NCBI GenBank assembly: GCA_022979955.1
Contig: GCA_022979955.1_3642.1
Reading direction: 5' to 3' (one strand)
DNA length: 64,000 nucleotides
Origin: a phage
The notes beneath the pieces are model-generated. The model saw only the letters and a program-made list of their open reading frames with translations. It was not told the DNA's origin and did not search any database. A program made the translations under genes and the position numbers. Position 1 is the first letter of the stretch, and each line of letters starts with the position of its first letter. Shown here piece by piece: positions 13,093 through 61,707 of this stretch.

Positions 13093-13695
13093 CTGCTCTT
13101 CTCCTACCATAAACGGCCCTACCTGGCAAGTGGAATAATTGACTAGCCATCAATCCCACATACTGTACAAATATACATGGAAAATAACTATTGCATAATT
13201 TTTCATTGTGTGGTAGCAAGTCCATTTTTACCCGTTTTCTCTCCCAAAAGTGCACGTAATGCCGCTATTGCACAAATTTTAACCTGATGCACATCTCTAA
13301 TATCTTGTCAACAACTAAAAATCTTTATAAGTCATACACTTACACAGCATCGAAAGCGTGTTCTACGCGAAAAATCGAGTATAACTATAGCCGCCAGATC
13401 TCAGAATTCACGTACGCACGCCATTCTATAGCCTGCAAAGTATTTATTCCAACCACAGAATAACGGAATAGTCAATACCTGCATAAAATAATTATTCGTG
13501 TAAACTGCATAACATAAATCAGCTCAGGTGTCAACATTTTTCGTAAACAGTTCGAAATTGTCACGGTAAGTTATTATACACAGAGAAATCTTTAGTCGTC
13601 TAATGGTTACTATACATTACTAATCTGACTGGAATCATTAGATGACTAATAGAAAGATAAGAAATAATTAACAGTCTAATTATATTAACGATAAC

Positions 13696-13970
13696 AATAA
13701 CAGCGGTTAAAGTCATGGCGCGACGGAGTCGCGACATAATAACACCGAGTAACCCTCACCCCCGTGAGCGTTGCGAATGTTATTATGCCATGACTAAATC
13801 ATTTCAACACGTAACTATAGGCATAACAACATTCCCTCGGTGTTATTATGTCGCTAGTTATTATATAACTGTTAACAATAACGCCTCGGGAATAGTTCTG
13901 CCTGCACGATGTTTATAACAGCAAGTTATGATCAACATTTCACAGATTATAATAACAGCGGTTAAAGTCA
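13696..13970. repeat. 20-bp direct repeat AATAACAGCGGTTAAAGTCA (13696..13715 and 13951..13970)
   Basis: two identical copies read directly. Confidence 0.6.
13731..13854. repeat. 19-bp perfect inverted repeat GCGACATAATAACACCGAG / CTCGGTGTTATTATGTCGC separated by 86 bp
   Basis: arms at 13731..13749 and 13836..13854 are exact reverse complements. Confidence 0.6.
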
Positions 13971-14597
13971 GGCGTAGAAACAGTGGAAGTGTAAACAGTC
14001 AATCATGTAAATGATAAGTATGTGAACAGTTATCCATGTAAACTATTAGACATGTAAACAATCAGGTGTGCAAAAGTGTCAAGGGTGTCACCATTGTGTC
14101 TAAAGTGTCGTATGTCATCAGTATGTCAGACAAGTTTTTCTCCTCTTTGTCAAGTGCTGCATGAAAAATTTACAATCTTGTATGGTAGCATTTTTGCGGT
14201 CCTGTTTACATTCAGAGATGTATGTATAATCCTTGTTGTGTGGGCGTTTAGACGTCTAGACGGTCAGAAGTCTGCAGGTCAATATCTAATCTATTGGCTG
14301 CTAACTATATCCCACACAAATAGTAAGAAATATAATTGTTATATGCGTAAACAGTAACCCATGTTATCAATCCCTGTATGGATCGCCAGTGGTGCGCATA
14401 ATGGGTATTATGTTAAATTGCCCGTAATGATAATGGTTCTCACAATGATATGTATTCTCATTCCCCCACACAAAATAGATTGCAAATGTTGTGCCACTAT
14501 GTGAACGGCCTCACCTATTAATTTGCCTCACTGCCTCGATATTTGAGAATTATTATAAGAATGAGAAGTATTCCCATTTCGTCCGCCTGGCAGCGCT

Positions 14598-14900
14598 CCT
14601 GTAGGTCCTGCAAGGACTCTAGCTGAAAGCTAGACCCTTCGGGCCTCCCTGTAGGTCAGGTCAAAATCGTGGTAGAATTGGGCCTATTCAGATATTTCTG
14701 GCTGGCTCTTCAGGTCTGTGTGGGAAAAGCCAACCTCTCCGGCGGGGCAGGGGGAGGTAAATTAAAAAATTTACGGGGTATATGAAGCGCTCTTCAGGTA
14801 AGGCATGTACTATGGGATGAAACCCTCTTCAGGCAATGATATTTGTGGGTGTGATATTTGCTGGAAAGCCAGATATGACGGGACTCCCGGCGGGGCAGGG
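14598..14900. repeat. cluster of short direct repeats: CCTGTAGGTC x2, CTCTTCAGG x3 (4th at 15238), CCGGCGGGGCAGGG x2
   Basis: motifs read at 14598, 14647; 14706, 14790, 14825; 14739, 14887. Confidence 0.55.
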
Positions 14901-15596
14901 GTAGTACAGACAGGGAAAATATGAGAATGTAGTTGGGGAAATTGATCAGACAGGTAGAGTATGGAATATGTTACAAGTATGTTAAATATGGAGGTTGAAT
15001 ATCTGTAGGATTTGTGTGTAAAATCAAAGACTTAAGGGGTGTTGTGGTATTTTCTATAAATAATTCAAGTTTAATAGGCAATATTTGTCTCTATCCGCTT
15101 TGTGTGGTAAACAGATTCAGATTAGATTGGTTTACAAGTGTATACATAATATACAAATTAAAGATACAAGAAACCCCCCTCCCCCTTCGGCTACCATTCA
15201 CCTTTTCCTCTGACTGGTACTTAAACACTTATTCAGACTCTTCAGGTTATCACCCATATATCATATGGCAGTGACTGGTGTCCTCCGGCCCCTCTTTCGT
15301 CACCCGTCCGCTTCGCCATGCTAATGCCATAGCTAATGGTTCGGTTGTTCACCCTGTTCACTCAGGTGTATCTCTATACCCCTTCAAACCGAAGAGAACA
15401 GAAAACCCGAATTACTCGGTAAAAGAAAAGAGAAGAACTTAATTTTATCAGGATAGGCAAGAATGTCAAGGCATGACTGCTCACTAAACAAGCAAACAGT
15501 CATGTGTGGGAGGTAAGTGATTGTGGTGGTAGGAAATTTAGTTGAAAGATGTGTTATAGGTGCTTCCAGCACTTTAGCCTGGCAGCTAATTGTGTG

Positions 15597-15812
15597 TCAG
15601 TCCAGCGGTTCATCCTCTACTTCACTGAAATCAATGTTCATGGTCTCTTCCCAACCATCGATCTCAGCACAAGAGTGGAGTTCTTTAGGGTTTACTCCCA
15701 AAGCCTCAGCAACAGAGTCTATATTTAACACCTCTGGCAGGTATGTTTCATCGAATTCAAGGTAAATCAGGCCACGAGTGTTGTCAGCTCCACCAAATAT
15801 TTCTATCTTCAT
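15597..15812 (-). CDS. hypothetical small acidic protein (MKIEI... N-terminus)
   Basis: ORF track; last gene of - strand block. Confidence 0.45.
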   Translation of the reverse strand: MKIEIFGGADNTRGLIYLEFDETYLPEVLNIDSVAEALGVNPKELHSCAEIDGWEETMNIDFSEVEDEPLD

Positions 15813-15933
15813 GAAATCTCCTCTGGAAATGAGAGTGTGAACAGGGTTTTATACGTTCCAATGCACTGGAATTATACACGTTTGCCTCTTCAGGCCATGC
15901 TTTAGCATGAGGAGCCTGTGTGGGCTCGGTGCT

Positions 15934-16347
15934 TCATAGTCTACCACCTCTGAACTCTTCGTGCTCAGGCATAATAGAGAACCAGATATCTACGATGTCT
16001 TCCCACGTTAGGTCATCAGCCTCAGGATCTGTCTGGGACGAAGATGGAGAATCTTCAGAATCGAAGTTTTCCTCTTGCACTGGCTCAGTCAAGGGACATA
16101 TAGTCACTCCTTTGGATGTCTCTTCAGATGCATGTGTGTTTATCATGTTCCACCCGTGAGTATTCCGGCAACAGCCACTATGGACGTAATGATCATCAGG
16201 ATCACCACCAAAACCTCTGACAATGTTTTCATTGTGTATCCCATATTCTCCAAACGATGTGTGGATACTATCACTGGAGCGGCAATGTGTCAACAGAAAC
16301 GCCGCGAGGGTTTGGTTAAAATCCGAGCGTATGGTGATTTGGGTCAA
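15934..16347 (-). CDS. hypothetical acidic protein
   Basis: ORF track 137 aa. Confidence 0.4.
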   Translation of the reverse strand: MTQITIRSDFNQTLAAFLLTHCRSSDSIHTSFGEYGIHNENIVRGFGGDPDDHYVHSGCCRNTHGWNMINTHASEETSKGVTICPLTEPVQEENFDSEDSPSSSQTDPEADDLTWEDIVDIWFSIMPEHEEFRGGRL

Positions 16348-16451
16348 AACGGACGTGCGTTCTCGCTACGCTCGAAAGAGAGACTTGTTTGTAGAAAGCT
16401 CTTAAACGCTCTGTAACGAGATTATCTGTCCAAGGTATGCAATCGTGCACC

Positions 16452-16482
16452 AGATAAAGAAAAGGACGCCACAGAGCGTCCT
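16452..16482 (-). terminator. rho-independent terminator (- strand)
   Basis: GGACGC-CACAGA-GCGTCC hairpin followed by U-rich run on - strand. Confidence 0.5.
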
Positions 16483-16506
16483 AGGTGTCTTAAATTTGAT
16501 ATTTTG

Positions 16507-16818
16507 CTATACCCATGAGGGCTTATCAAGGTTGGAGTAGCTGAAAGGTGTCAAAAGGTGACTGTCAAAATCCCTCAAACTATCCAAATCTTTTTCCTCG
16601 TCCTGACACCATCTGTGCCTACATTTATTGTTGTAGTGCATAGAATGCATAGCGTTCTGCAACTTAACAGGTACAAGTGATTCAGGAGTAGATAGTATTG
16701 TTGGGTATGCCAGAATCACCTCAAACAGTGGAAACACATCGAAACTAAAGTCTACCTCTGCAGAGGTTGATGGCATATAGGAGTATTTAGCCGCCTTTGT
16801 AGACATAATCCACCTCAC
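16507..16818 (-). CDS. hypothetical protein
   Basis: ORF track. Confidence 0.4.
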   Translation of the reverse strand: MRWIMSTKAAKYSYMPSTSAEVDFSFDVFPLFEVILAYPTILSTPESLVPVKLQNAMHSMHYNNKCRHRWCQDEEKDLDSLRDFDSHLLTPFSYSNLDKPSWV

Positions 16819-57830: not shown

Positions 57831-57927
57831 GCTAGGTAAGCCCTTTGGCAAGGGCGAGGATTTTTAATCCTGAAAATAGACGAGGTAGTCGTTGAATACA
57901 TAGGTGGTTCGATTCCACCGCCTAGCA
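57831..57927 (+). tRNA. atypical tRNA-like gene (anticodon loop TTTTTAA, nominal Lys-UUU) with about 30-nt extra arm
   Basis: acceptor GCTAGGT/GCCTAGC, D-arm GCCC-TTTGGCAA-GGGC, T-arm GGTGG-TTCGATT-CCACC; 4-bp anticodon stem; no encoded CCA. Confidence 0.35.
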
Positions 57928-57933
57928 CCTTTT

Positions 57934-58993: not shown

Positions 58994-59277
58994 GAGTTGC
59001 TACACTGTTTATTGCGTGCTTGTTATTATGTGGGTGTGCAACCAGTGTTGAGAAAGAATACAAGATTGACCCTCCAGATGTAGGAAGGTTGATTGTTAAA
59101 CCCCCAGAAGGTGCCATGAAACCACCTGCTAAAGCTATGCCTTTGAAGAAAGGTGCGCCAGATGCAGTGAACTCTGGCATTATGAGGGATAATAATCTGT
59201 CTTGTAGCAATGATAGAGCTAAATTGATCATTTTGCAAGACTATATTAGAACACTGTTTCCAAAGGAGAGAGGTTAA
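58990..59277 (+). CDS. putative o-spanin (Rz1-like lipoprotein)
   Basis: signal peptide with lipobox LLCGC; Pro-rich mature region; ATGA overlap with upstream gene. Confidence 0.5.
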   Translation: MRVATLFIACLLLCGCATSVEKEYKIDPPDVGRLIVKPPEGAMKPPAKAMPLKKGAPDAVNSGIMRDNNLSCSNDRAKLIILQDYIRTLFPKERG

Positions 59278-59705
59278 TGTCTAAGATTTACGGACCGTGT
59301 TCTGAAAAGCAGAAGATGATCCTAGAAAACGATGCAGATATTTTGGTAATCGGCGGTGCCGCAGGGTCTGGCAAGTCGTTCCTCTTGCAGTTGATGCCAC
59401 TTAAAATTATTGATGACCCCCACAGCTCTGTGGTTATGTTCCGAAGAACAACCCCACAGTTGGAAGGTGAGGGTGGACTATGGCCTAAAGCAGTAGCTAT
59501 TTATAGTGATCTGCCTGAAAACATTAAGCCAAAGTTCAGAGAGAAGGATCATAAGTTCATTTTTCCACGGTTTGATCCGAACACTGGCAAGTGGGATAGG
59601 AGCAAAAAGGGAGCTGTTGTAAAATACTGCCACATGGAGTATGTACAAGATAAGCTTAACCATCAAGGGCTTGAGTACACCATGGTTTGCTTCGATGAGG
59701 GTTAA
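59277..59705 (+). CDS. terL: terminase large subunit, N-terminal exon (ATPase Walker A/B)
   Basis: Walker A VIGGAAGSGKS, Walker B-like MVCFDEG immediately before stop; C-terminal part resumes at about 60619. Confidence 0.6.
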   Translation: MSKIYGPCSEKQKMILENDADILVIGGAAGSGKSFLLQLMPLKIIDDPHSSVVMFRRTTPQLEGEGGLWPKAVAIYSDLPENIKPKFREKDHKFIFPRFDPNTGKWDRSKKGAVVKYCHMEYVQDKLNHQGLEYTMVCFDEG

Positions 59706-60640
59706 TTTGTAGCTCTCGTAAAACCTCCCTAATTGCGGGGAAATCTTTATTATTGACACCACCAACCTGTTATGGTAACATAATAGAGGCTTCGAAGAGA
59801 GATCGAAGGTATGGTAATAGTGTGTTAATTTAGATAATCCGCAGCGAAGCATCCGAGAGGATGAACGTTCAACGACTAGTCGAAAGACGTAGAATCAAGC
59901 GATTCGAAACGGGAGGGTGAATGTGTAATACTAAAAAATGTATGGATTGTCAAAGAGTTCTACCTATTGATGATTTCTTTTTATCATCTAAGAGCAAGGA
60001 TGGATACTCAGGTACATGCAAGGAATGCTATATGTACTACAGGAAGGGTGGATCTCGTAAAAACAAAAATATGGTTAAGAGAGATGACGCAGCATTGTTT
60101 ATTCAAGACTTGCTGAAGAAAGGTGAACTTTTTGAATGCAAATCTTGTCATGAAAGTATGCTCGCTGATAGTTTTTACACAAAACGTGACTATGGTAAAG
60201 TATACCTGGTTACGAACAGGTGTAAGATGTGTGAAAAGTTTTATCAGATTGAGAAAAAATTTCACATAACAAAAGATGAATACTATCGTCTACTCTCAGA
60301 TCAAGATCATAAGTGTGCCATTTGTAGAATATCTCTTGATGAGTATAGGACGCAAGGGTACAGAGATTTCTTTTGTGTTGATCATGACCATAAAACTGGC
60401 GCTGTAAGAGGGTTGCTTTGTGATAAATGCAACAGAGCTTTAGGTTTCTTCCAAGAGGATGAGGAAACTATTCTTAGAGCGGCAGAGTATTTGCACATTC
60501 ATAAGATATAGTCTGGTCTGCATGGAGACATGCAGCTGCCTGAAAATGGCGGGGCAAGACTAGCGACCTTGCCCGAACATAAACGACACAATTCGAATGG
60601 GAGCAGATAGACTACCTGATGTCTCGTTTGCGATCTCAGT
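59706..60640 (+). mobile_element. putative group I intron in terL carrying an HNH homing endonuclease gene
   Basis: terL frame interrupted right after Walker B; structured-looking flanks; free-standing HNH ORF with own SD; boundaries approximate. Confidence 0.5.
59921..60511 (+). CDS. HNH homing endonuclease (endonuclease VII-type motif)
   Basis: CVDHDHKTGAVRGLLCDKCNRALG motif plus N-terminal Cys-rich region; GGGAGGGTGA SD. Confidence 0.7.
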   Translation: MCNTKKCMDCQRVLPIDDFFLSSKSKDGYSGTCKECYMYYRKGGSRKNKNMVKRDDAALFIQDLLKKGELFECKSCHESMLADSFYTKRDYGKVYLVTNRCKMCEKFYQIEKKFHITKDEYYRLLSDQDHKCAICRISLDEYRTQGYRDFFCVDHDHKTGAVRGLLCDKCNRALGFFQEDEETILRAAEYLHIHKI

Positions 60641-61707
60641 CAAAGTATCCATCAAGGATGGTTATCAGCTGTAACCCTGATTCAGAACACATGCTTGCCA
60701 AACTGGTTAGATGGTGGTTGGACGATGAAGGGTATCCAGATCCGGAGAAATGTGGTAAGAAAAGATATTTTATCCGACGCGACGGTGAATTTATTTGGGG
60801 AGACTCTAAGGAAGAGTTGATAGAGAAATACACCACGGTTAACGGACTGGGTGTAGAGATCAAGCCAAGACCGTTGTCATTCTCGTTCATAGGCGCAACA
60901 ATATTTGATAATCCTGTCTGTTTGAGAGACAACCCAGAATACCTTGCTTTCCTCGAAGGTCTGCCAGAGCTGGAAAAAGCTCAGCTTCTCCATGGTAACT
61001 GGTTTGCAAAGCCTGAGGGTGCAAACTATTTTCAAAGATCTTTCCTTCGTGATGCCGATAGAGTACCCCTTGGATCAGTATCTTGCAGGGCATGGGATAA
61101 GGCAGGAACCGAGAGAACTTCTGGCAATAAATTTCCTGACTTTACTGCCAGTATTAAGGTAAGTAAAGATAGCGACGGCTTTTATTACCTGTCAGGGGAT
61201 TATTGTCCTGAAAACGTGGATGACGGGAGGTATTCCACAGGTCTGGAAGGCAAGTTCTGTAAAAAGGCTGGTGAACGAGATGTGATCATCAGGAAACAGG
61301 CGCAGTTTGATGGTGATGATTGCATAATCGTATTCTCTGTGGACCCTGGTCAGGCAGGTAAGAGTGAGTTCTTAACCTCATCCAGATCCTTGCTCGCCGA
61401 AGGGTTCAGGGTTGAAGAAGACCCAATGCCTTCCAACAAATCTAAACTGACAAGGTTCTCACCTTTTGCCAATCTTGCACAACAAGGGATGGTGAGGATT
61501 GTAAAATCCAGTTTCCATCCTGATACTCTGGAAGCATTTCTGACTGAACTTGAAAAATTCAACGGGGAAAGATCAACATTTAACAGAAAAGACGACTGGG
61601 CAGACTGTGTAGCTTCTGCGATTAATTTCCTGGAGAAAGAGGAGGTAGCACTTCCTTGTGTGATTCCATCAATCTCATCACCTTCTATGTTCAAGCGTTT
61701 TATCTAA
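60619..61707 (+). CDS. terL: terminase large subunit, C-terminal exon (nuclease domain); true exon start unresolved
   Basis: continues terminase after the intron (ISCNPD segment near start); size and position before portal. Confidence 0.55.
   Translation: MSRLRSQSKYPSRMVISCNPDSEHMLAKLVRWWLDDEGYPDPEKCGKKRYFIRRDGEFIWGDSKEELIEKYTTVNGLGVEIKPRPLSFSFIGATIFDNPVCLRDNPEYLAFLEGLPELEKAQLLHGNWFAKPEGANYFQRSFLRDADRVPLGSVSCRAWDKAGTERTSGNKFPDFTASIKVSKDSDGFYYLSGDYCPENVDDGRYSTGLEGKFCKKAGERDVIIRKQAQFDGDDCIIVFSVDPGQAGKSEFLTSSRSLLAEGFRVEEDPMPSNKSKLTRFSPFANLAQQGMVRIVKSSFHPDTLEAFLTELEKFNGERSTFNRKDDWADCVASAINFLEKEEVALPCVIPSISSPSMFKRFI

Follow-up and report, generated by a model that had tools for sequence, protein, structure and literature searches.

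Introduction

Why does a stretch of phage DNA with no apparent gene carry a cluster of short GC-rich direct repeats? The question is raised by positions 14598–14900 of the 64,000-nt stretch analysed here (GenBank assembly GCA_022979955.1, contig GCA_022979955.1_3642.1), which is called the window below and which, by sequence comparison with GenBank relatives, belongs to a Vequintavirus, i.e., an rV5-like phage of E. coli. The original prediction, made from the sequence of the window, held that three motifs repeated in this block, CTCTTCAGG, CCGGCGGGGCAGGG, and CCTGTAGGTC, could mark a packaging, terminase recognition, or nicking site. The repeats begin 10 bases from a fixed genome end and are hence most likely part of the signal for the packaging cut. 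A probability of roughly 0.55 is assigned to the reading that the cluster acts in cis as an end-formation and packaging signal flanking this end, as suggested by its position and conservation in the sequences compared.

The Vequintavirinae are a large group of myoviruses of enterobacteria with genomes of about 135–150 kb. The rV5-like phages are common in collections for phage therapy and biocontrol, and most of the deposited genomes are opened at arbitrary points.

The repeat cluster adjoins a direct terminal repeat

The cluster lies on the concatemer side of one boundary of a direct terminal repeat (DTR) of about 459 bp. The GenBank record of EdH4 has the same 459 bp at its two ends (100% identity), corresponding to the window from position 14587 down to position 14129. 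The records of HdK5, ECP2309, and Gotham start with the same 459 bp, each with a second copy at the record end, and in Gotham the segment is annotated as a repeat_region. Furthermore, the ECP2303 record ends with this segment, the Pr121LW record starts at 14129, and the bov11CS3 record is opened exactly at 14587/14588. At least seven independently deposited GenBank relatives thus share the boundary nucleotides 14129 or 14587. Terminal redundancies of 458 bp are given for EdH4 and HdK5 in the retrieved passages of Korf (2019; PMC6563267). From the identical ends of EdH4, the other record ends, and this report, it follows that 14129–14587 corresponds to the DTR of the virion DNA. Judged from the deposited sequences, the virion DNA of the relatives ends at window positions 14128/14129 and 14587/14588.

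The window segment is 95–97% identical to the annotated repeats, and between genera (Mydovirus and Seunavirus) the DTR is alignable in parts at about 70% identity. In the Mydovirus KPP-1, PhageTerm confirmed a DTR of 514 bp, which was classed as T7-type, according to the retrieved passages of PMC9862379. The records of the Klebsiella phages DP and KP12 open with precisely these 514 bp, and in a BLAST search with the KPP-1 DTR the homology stops exactly at the boundary, at query position 514. An alignment of 14 vequintaviruses delimits the same segment. The DTR is 88–98% conserved with a steep drop at both edges, to 25–61% outside one boundary (13760–14119) and to 36–70% outside the other (14600–14679). 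Beyond the latter, conservation is 89–100% over the largely non-coding 14680–15930, including 89–99% over 14680–14960, although this part is non-coding.

These data agree with packaging of the T7 type. An exact short direct repeat stands at both ends (by transfer from relatives, at the identity given above), the ends are fixed and site-specific in at least seven records and also in KPP-1, DP, and KP12, and short-repeat arrays flank the DTR on both sides (14076–14128; boxes at 14683–14946). In the headful type of P1, SPP1, and P22, the ends are permuted and imprecise, whereas here the records of different laboratories end identically with the 459-bp repeat. The end signal on which the original prediction was staked is therefore present, since the relatives' ends fall at 14587/14588. 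Its location holds, as the block at 14598 starts 10 bp outside this boundary, but the cut site itself lies just outside 14598–14900, and binding of the terminase to the motifs is conjectural.

The elements at and between the two boundaries are as follows.

13990–14065, plus strand: GTAAACA-type iterons (TGTAAACA / TGTGAACA) outside the 14129 boundary (repeat families D1 and D3)
14076–14128, plus strand: six (R)TGTC(A) boxes with a spacing of about 10 bp, the last box being the cut site (motif count)
14124–14131, plus strand: inferred end or cut site TGTCA↓GAC, cut 14128/14129 (record boundary of Pr121LW, EdH4, HdK5, and others)
14129–14587, no strand: DTR of the virion DNA, in single copy in this assembly (EdH4 ends, record ends of relatives, conservation)
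14585–14592, minus strand: inferred end or cut site TGCCA↓GGC, cut 14588/14587 (left end of EdH4, opening of bov11CS3)

An inverted pentamer at both boundaries

Both DTR boundaries follow one short motif, TGYCA↓GRC, in inverted orientation. The plus strand at the first boundary reads ...GTATGTCA↓GACAAG, and the minus strand at the other boundary reads ...GCTGCCA↓GGCGGAC. By our own estimate, the chance of an exact-register match of the two end motifs is about 6e-5. TGTCA↓GAC is invariant in 12 of the 14 vequintaviruses, these 12 having been retrieved by an anchor pattern; at the minus-strand boundary, the relatives carry TGCCA↓GGCGGAC and rV5 carries TGCCT.

The comparison was extended to eight genomes of four genera: the window, KPP-1 (Mydovirus), the Seunaviruses PVP-SE1, 4MG, GEC_vB_MG, GAP31, and FENT2, and the Henunavirus pEp_SNUABM_01. 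It was bridged through the DTR of KPP-1; a conserved neighbouring 71-aa gene at 15597–15812 was dropped as a bridge, being confined to Vequintavirus. PVP-SE1 and GEC_vB_MG are nearly identical in this region and were counted as one observation. KPP-1, at its published DTR coordinates, has GGTGCTA↓GACGGAC on one strand and ATTGCTA↓AACAC on the other. The five Seunaviruses and the Henunavirus contain TG(C/T)TA↓GACGGAC and TGCTA↓AAC at the homologous positions, where the consensus of Mydo- and Seunaviruses is TGYTA↓RAC. The pentamer may thus mark strand-specific cuts, with a different strand cut at each boundary; the classical T7-type duplication of a terminal repeat requires cuts of this arrangement.

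Outside the 14129 boundary, the motif recurs as an array that ends in the cut site. Six RTGTC boxes occur within 70 nt, where 0.11 are expected (Poisson P = 2e-9). The relatives keep three to six RTRTGTCA decamers, though the rest of this flank is hypervariable and unalignable. In addition, TAAACAT boxes resembling the GTAAACA iterons are found in Seunaviruses, upstream of the GRCGGAC end.

A further box, CTTGACA..GAG, lies about 20–25 nt inside the DTR from the TGTCA/TGCTA end (window 14150–14156, minus strand). It is conserved in the window, KPP-1, and five Seunavirus genomes, and pEp_SNUABM_01 has TTGACATAGGGA instead. The box looks like a -35 element; the matching -10 element would then lie across the repeat boundary.

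Conserved elements outside the GRCGGAC end

Outside the GGCGGAC end, one-directional CCTGAAGAG boxes, a C/G-tract element, and AAATATC boxes are situated, and like elements occur at the corresponding place in other genera of the Vequintavirinae. In the window, they are arranged as follows.

14683–14786, plus strand: direct-repeat unit 1, with GATATTT (14691–14697), CTCTTCAGG (14706–14714), and the G-tract CCGGCGGGGCAGGG (14739–14752) (local alignment)
14790–14833, plus strand: two CTCTTCAGG boxes (14790–14798 and 14825–14833) in 20-mers spaced by 35 bp, ATGAAGCGCTCTTCAGGTAA / ATGAAACCCTCTTCAGGCAA (repeat families D2 and D6)
14824–14946, plus strand: direct-repeat unit 2, with GATATTT twice (14838–14844 and 14853–14859) and the G-tract CCGGCGGGGCAGGG (14887–14900) (local alignment, motif search)
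15238–15246, plus strand: distal CTCTTCAGG box in a 100%-conserved stretch (motif count, alignment)
15886–15894, plus strand: most distal exact CTCTTCAGG box (motif count)

The CTCTTCAGG copies named in the original prediction are indeed present at 14706, 14790, 14825, and 15238; to these are added the exact copy at 15886 and a copy with one mismatch at 16120. The proposed comparison with shuffled sequence bears out their enrichment, with eight copies in the window against 0.54 ± 0.72 expected, a number that none of 100 dinucleotide shuffles reaches. Every copy in the window is on the plus strand, five of them at 14706–15894. The boxes at 14706, 14790, and 14825 are invariant in the 14 vequintaviruses, all of which contain four to five copies, on the plus strand only.

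Read toward the cut site, on the opposite strand, CTCTTCAGG becomes CCTGAAGAG, with the core CTGAAG and the extended consensus YCTGAAGNG. Counted over 600 nt upstream of the GRCGGAC end, CTGAAG is present in three copies in the window, KPP-1, and GAP31, in four in 4MG, and in five in PVP-SE1 and GEC_vB_MG. None of these six genomes has a copy in the opposite orientation; about 0.1–0.2 copies are expected, and the shuffle P is at most 0.002 for each. One-directional CTGAAG boxes hence stand beside the same DTR end in six of the eight genomes, while the sequence between them is unalignable across genera.

The two copies of CCGGCGGGGCAGGG were likewise placed correctly, at 14739 and 14887. Two sites are found in the window against 0.07 expected from dinucleotide shuffles, and still only these two when two mismatches are allowed; a scan of IMG/VR with this motif gave only unrelated single chance matches in GC-rich contigs. 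Both copies, together with part of the CTCTTCAGG/GATATTT pattern, belong to a degenerate direct repeat of about 140 bp (14683–14786 versus 14824–14946), whose local alignment score is 51, compared with 22 ± 3.6 and a maximum of 35 in shuffles. The adjacent units are thus alignable above chance, as in a tandem or segmental duplication, and the doubling of the G-tract and the repetition of the GATATTT boxes go back to this duplication. Unit 2 is 98–99% conserved among relatives.

On the minus strand, CCGGCGGGGCAGGG is the C-tract CCTCCCCCTGCCCCGCCGG. At the homologous place in the other genera, ACCCACCCC(T/C/G)CCCCCG... is followed by GAAAATATC about 35 nt on and by the cut site about 50 nt further on. 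The C-tract (ACCCACCCC..CCCCCG) and then GAAAATATC are present in all eight genomes, about 95–150 nt from the DTR end. The order on the minus strand of the window is C-tract, CCTGAAGAG, AAATATC, and cut site, with the module present twice, and the layout of unit 1 on this strand is homologous to the C-tract ... GAAAATATC module of the Seuna-, Mydo-, and Henunaviruses. The exact CCGGCGGGGCAGGG occurs in zero to two copies among close relatives, and rV5 has CCGGCGGCGGGGAGGGG. As the alignments indicate, the conserved feature is a strand-asymmetric G/C tract and not the exact 14-mer.

A G-quadruplex was also considered for this tract. The canonical four-tract motif exists on the G-rich strand in PVP-SE1, 4MG, GEC_vB_MG, GAP31, and pEp_SNUABM_01, but the window, KPP-1, and FENT2 lack it, and it is therefore not a shared feature. 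The G-rich strand of the conserved tract also contains GGGNAGGG (window 14744–14751 and 14892–14899), which we take to be the consensus of KOPS, the sequences that orient FtsK in E. coli. It is found in the window (twice), rV5, PVP-SE1, 4MG, GAP31, and KPP-1, and not in FENT2 and pEp_SNUABM_01, which are also the two genomes without CTGAAG boxes. This occurrence may be a coincidence of G-richness.

Insertion alleles beside the boundary

The third motif, CCTGTAGGTC, is of a different nature. Its two exact copies, at 14598 and 14648, are real, but with one mismatch allowed the window contains four sites against 2.4 expected, which is not above chance, and rV5 and most relatives lack the pair. 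Three alleles exist at this place. rV5 reads GGCAGCACTCCTGTAGGTCAGG and lacks an insert; in the window, APECc02, and Alma, a 40-bp insert follows CCTGTAGGTC, together with a duplication of this 10-mer; and most other relatives contain a 22-bp insert with an 11-bp duplication of GGCAGCACTCC. The pair is an allele-specific duplication, and is accordingly the footprint of an insertion rather than a conserved functional site. Cross-genus support within the predicted cluster is thus confined to CTCTTCAGG and the G/C tract, whereas CCTGTAGGTC is lineage-specific and the exact CCGGCGGGGCAGGG varies in copy number as given above.

14598–14657, plus strand: allele-specific 40-bp insertion flanked by the duplicated CCTGTAGGTC (three-allele comparison)

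Three small stem-loops, closed by loops of the GCAA, GAAA, and UUCG types, lie in the 40-bp insert, which is present in 32 of about 120 relatives' records, at this locus only. A mobile mini-element was ruled out for this hairpin insert, as the 32 vequintavirus records have it at this locus alone and no other copy exists in the window. Both DTR flanks (13760–14119 and 14600–14680) are hypervariable among phages that are otherwise 90–99% identical; beside the boundaries there are changes in decamer copy number and two different insertions, each with a flanking duplication of 10–11 bp. The hypervariable flanks and the insertion and duplication alleles may be scars of faulty end processing.

Setting of the interval

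Over 13900–16500 (2.6 kb), 122 phage records match at 90–99% identity, all of them rV5-like (Vequintavirus). Nineteen of these records (GenBank MG0656xx) are named 'Campylobacter phage' and are 92–99% identical to the region, with Campylobacter jejuni given as the host for 17; they are probably mislabelled or contaminant genomes.

The plus-strand genes stop at 13918 and the minus-strand genes stop at 15597, so that the interval is the meeting point of two convergent transcription units. The homologous interval of rV5 was drawn as an unexplained 'non-coding' box by Kropinski (2013; PMC3606486), where bidirectional terminators were expected and none were found. In the window, this ORF-free interval amounts to 1.7 kb, in which the repeat finder and motif counts reveal several independent iteron-like families packed together: GTAAACA boxes, RTGTC decamers, CCCACACAAA inverted repeats, and CTCTTCAGG.

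A segment of about 900 bp without a credible gene (14680–15600) is 89–100% conserved in the alignment of 14 vequintaviruses, essentially invariant at 15200–15500, and better conserved than the neighbouring coding DNA at 13560–13760. On the minus strand, a strong sigma-70-like promoter lies at 15469–15442, with a terminator-like hairpin (15419–15407) within 30 nt downstream.

Weighing the explanations

That the region encodes small proteins is highly improbable. As the original prediction stated, the block is effectively non-coding, in that no open reading frame (ORF) of at least 40 aa is contained in 14598–14900. Two short ORFs cross it, of 38 aa (14669–14785) and 39 aa (14805–14924); both are present in the window and in APECc02, and the APECc02 record labels the homologue of the 38-aa ORF 'structural protein'. 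However, the first G-tract segment (TGTGTGGGA to AATTAAAAAATTTAC) is 58, 57, or 56 nt long among relatives, Alma has two additional nucleotides in the 39-aa ORF, the 38-aa ORF starts with GTG, and most records annotate nothing here. Indels of 1–2 nt inside both ORFs in close relatives indicate that they are not genes. A role in transcription, by terminators or pause sites between the convergent units or by a non-coding RNA from the minus-strand promoter at 15469–15442, is considered improbable, although transcription does converge here, Kropinski (2013) expected terminators in this very interval, and the promoter (11/12 match, extended -10) fires toward the DTR. GC-rich stem-loops exist in the region, and the 40-bp insert carries GNRA- and UUCG-type loops, but the latter insert is missing in about three quarters of the relatives. 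The terminator scan found no hairpin followed by a T-run inside 14598–14900. Terminator-like sites occur only at 15419–15407 and 16482–16463, both on the minus strand, and on the plus strand the G-tract stem is followed by TAAATTAAAAAATTTA and not by a T-run. A structured RNA was ruled out: Rfam 15 gave no match in 13700–16700 even at E ≤ 10, the folding energy is no better than that of shuffles (z = -0.19 on the plus strand and -1.28 on the minus strand), and the G/C tract, when aligned across genera, has almost no covariation in its weak hairpin. At the gathering threshold, the Rfam scan of the whole window returned tRNAs only. The G-tract hairpin can form in most genomes, but not in alleles of the MaxBurger/APECc02 type. 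Transcription across the concatemer junction has a part in the packaging of T7, and the transcriptional explanation therefore overlaps in part with a packaging signal.

Sites for replication or another function of DNA ends, such as an iteron origin, protection of the ends against host exonucleases, or DNA ejection, are unlikely, though they would account for several features. Genome ends and origins often coincide, several iteron-like families are packed into the 1.7-kb interval, and the boxes share one orientation and are scattered across more than 1 kb, a less usual layout for a compact terminase site. The cumulative GC skew also peaks near the interval, and skew changes were seen at the homologous position of rV5 (Kropinski 2013; PMC3606486). 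The skew change, however, coincides with the switch of transcription direction, and that of rV5 was read likewise in the same paper. Moreover, no AT-rich unwinding element or cluster of DnaA boxes was noticed on reading the sequence, for which no dedicated scan was made, and end formation is the more direct explanation for the close association of the motifs with the exact DTR boundary and its inverted cut-site motif. There is also little probability that the repeats are functionless leftovers, produced by local duplication and insertion in a zone prone to recombination beside the genome end. The origin of the two G-tract copies in the degenerate duplication, the insertion-associated CCTGTAGGTC pair in a minority of relatives, and the copy-number changes in both hypervariable flanks would fit such leftovers. 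On the other hand, 14680–14960 is conserved at the level given above with three invariant CTCTTCAGG boxes, the number and orientation of CTGAAG are kept in other genera where the intervening sequence has diverged past alignment, and the C-tract ... GAAAATATC module is kept in all eight genomes.

Several points weigh against a packaging signal itself. The fixed ends of the window phage are transferred from relatives that are 92–99% identical, and the link between the motifs and packaging is drawn from position and conservation. For another vequintavirus, headful packaging with partial permutation was inferred on the basis of PhageTerm (PMC13211470), which conflicts with the fixed ends described here. 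FENT2 and pEp_SNUABM_01 have no CTGAAG box on the upstream side of the homologous end, so the boxes are not universally required. The CTCTTCAGG boxes span 1.3 kb (to 15886), wider than typical binding sites of the terminase small subunit. The distance from the nearest box to the cut shifts with the insertion alleles, from about 76 to about 126 nt, which indicates that there is no strict geometry. Simultaneously, the first G-tract copy varies in sequence among close relatives, and the G-tract hairpin is without covariation support, the consensus having -2.0 kcal/mol and five pairs with one compensatory pair.

A possible mechanism of end formation

If the cluster is a packaging signal, the CTCTTCAGG and CCGGCGGGGCAGGG motifs would probably be recognition or architectural elements and not the cut site. 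On the concatemer, the terminase or an accessory DNA-binding protein would bind the boxes that recur upstream of the GRCGGAC end. Nicks after TGYCA would then be made at the two DTR boundaries, on a different strand at each. Finally, the recessed 3' ends would be extended through the repeat, leaving a full 459-bp DTR copy on each packaged genome, as in the T7-type scheme.

More tentatively, the Vequintavirinae may share a two-part signal for end formation. It would consist of the inverted TGYCA/TGYTA pentamer at both DTR boundaries and an upstream module of C/G tract, AAATATC, and one-directional YCTGAAGNG that recruits the packaging nuclease; the hypervariability and the insertion alleles at the boundaries would be scars of mis-processed staggered cuts. 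This generalization is doubtful enough to be offered as a conjecture.

Once the exact ends are known, genomes of this group can be oriented and annotated consistently, and the long 'non-coding' box, unexplained since the rV5 paper of 2013, gains an explanation. For the engineering of these phages or of packageable vectors, a specific stretch of DNA to be retained is indicated. Little is established about the packaging signals of DTR phages outside the T7 group, and the inverted motif and the cross-genus module give testable predictions.

Other features of the window

The gene of the terminase large subunit is split in the window. Its N-terminal part lies at 59277–59705 (profile positions 147–273) and its C-terminal part at 60619–61707 (profile positions 285–621), and between these parts (59277–61707) an endonuclease VII/HNH-like ORF is situated at 59921–60511. 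The split looks like an intron or a homing-endonuclease insertion; at the gathering threshold, Rfam found no group I intron. In addition, ARAGORN reports a tRNA-like gene of 99 nt, whose anticodon has four bases (atcc), at 57831–57929, within a tRNA cluster, where the Rfam tRNA model is silent.

Comparison with known systems

The presence of a DTR in this phage group is already known, and the cluster would be a terminus-flanking packaging signal of the type found in DTR phages. The DTR of EdH4 and HdK5 (458 bp; Korf 2019) is the same as window 14129–14587, and that of KPP-1 (514 bp; PMC9862379) is homologous in parts, at about 70% identity. In their retrieved passages, these reports are limited to the size and location of the repeat, and flanking motif arrays, an inverted cut-site motif, or a conserved upstream module are not described in those of PMC6563267 and PMC9862379. 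The inverted cut-site pentamer, the decamer array ending in the cut site, and the upstream CTGAAG module are thus undescribed as far as the retrieved passages go.

Multiple short oriented boxes in non-coding DNA beside a terminase cleavage site, here a putative one, are a likeness to P1, lambda, and SPP1. In P1 pac, lambda cosB, and SPP1 pacL-pacR, short repeated boxes bind the small subunit of the terminase beside the cleavage site. There are significant differences, however. P1 and SPP1 package by the headful mode with permuted ends, and lambda has cohesive ends, whereas the ends here are fixed and terminally repeated. Furthermore, the boxes here are spread over up to 1.3 kb, compared with about 100–200 bp in those phages, and binding of the small subunit is conjectural here.

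Judged by analogy of layout, the closest functional analogue would be the concatemer junction of T7 and T3. This junction reportedly contains a terminal repeat of 160 bp in T7 and 230 bp in T3, flanking arrays of short repeats (SRL and SRR), and an adjacent pac site. The motif sequences here are unrelated to those of T7, the DTR is longer (about 459 bp), and the phage is a myovirus of about 137 kb without a phage RNA polymerase. The inverted pentamer TGYCA at both boundaries is a further difference, and the packaging role of the motifs here is putative. The two systems have in common a short exact DTR with fixed ends, arrays of short direct repeats directly outside both repeat boundaries, cis elements on the concatemer side, and a promoter near the end that fires toward the repeat.

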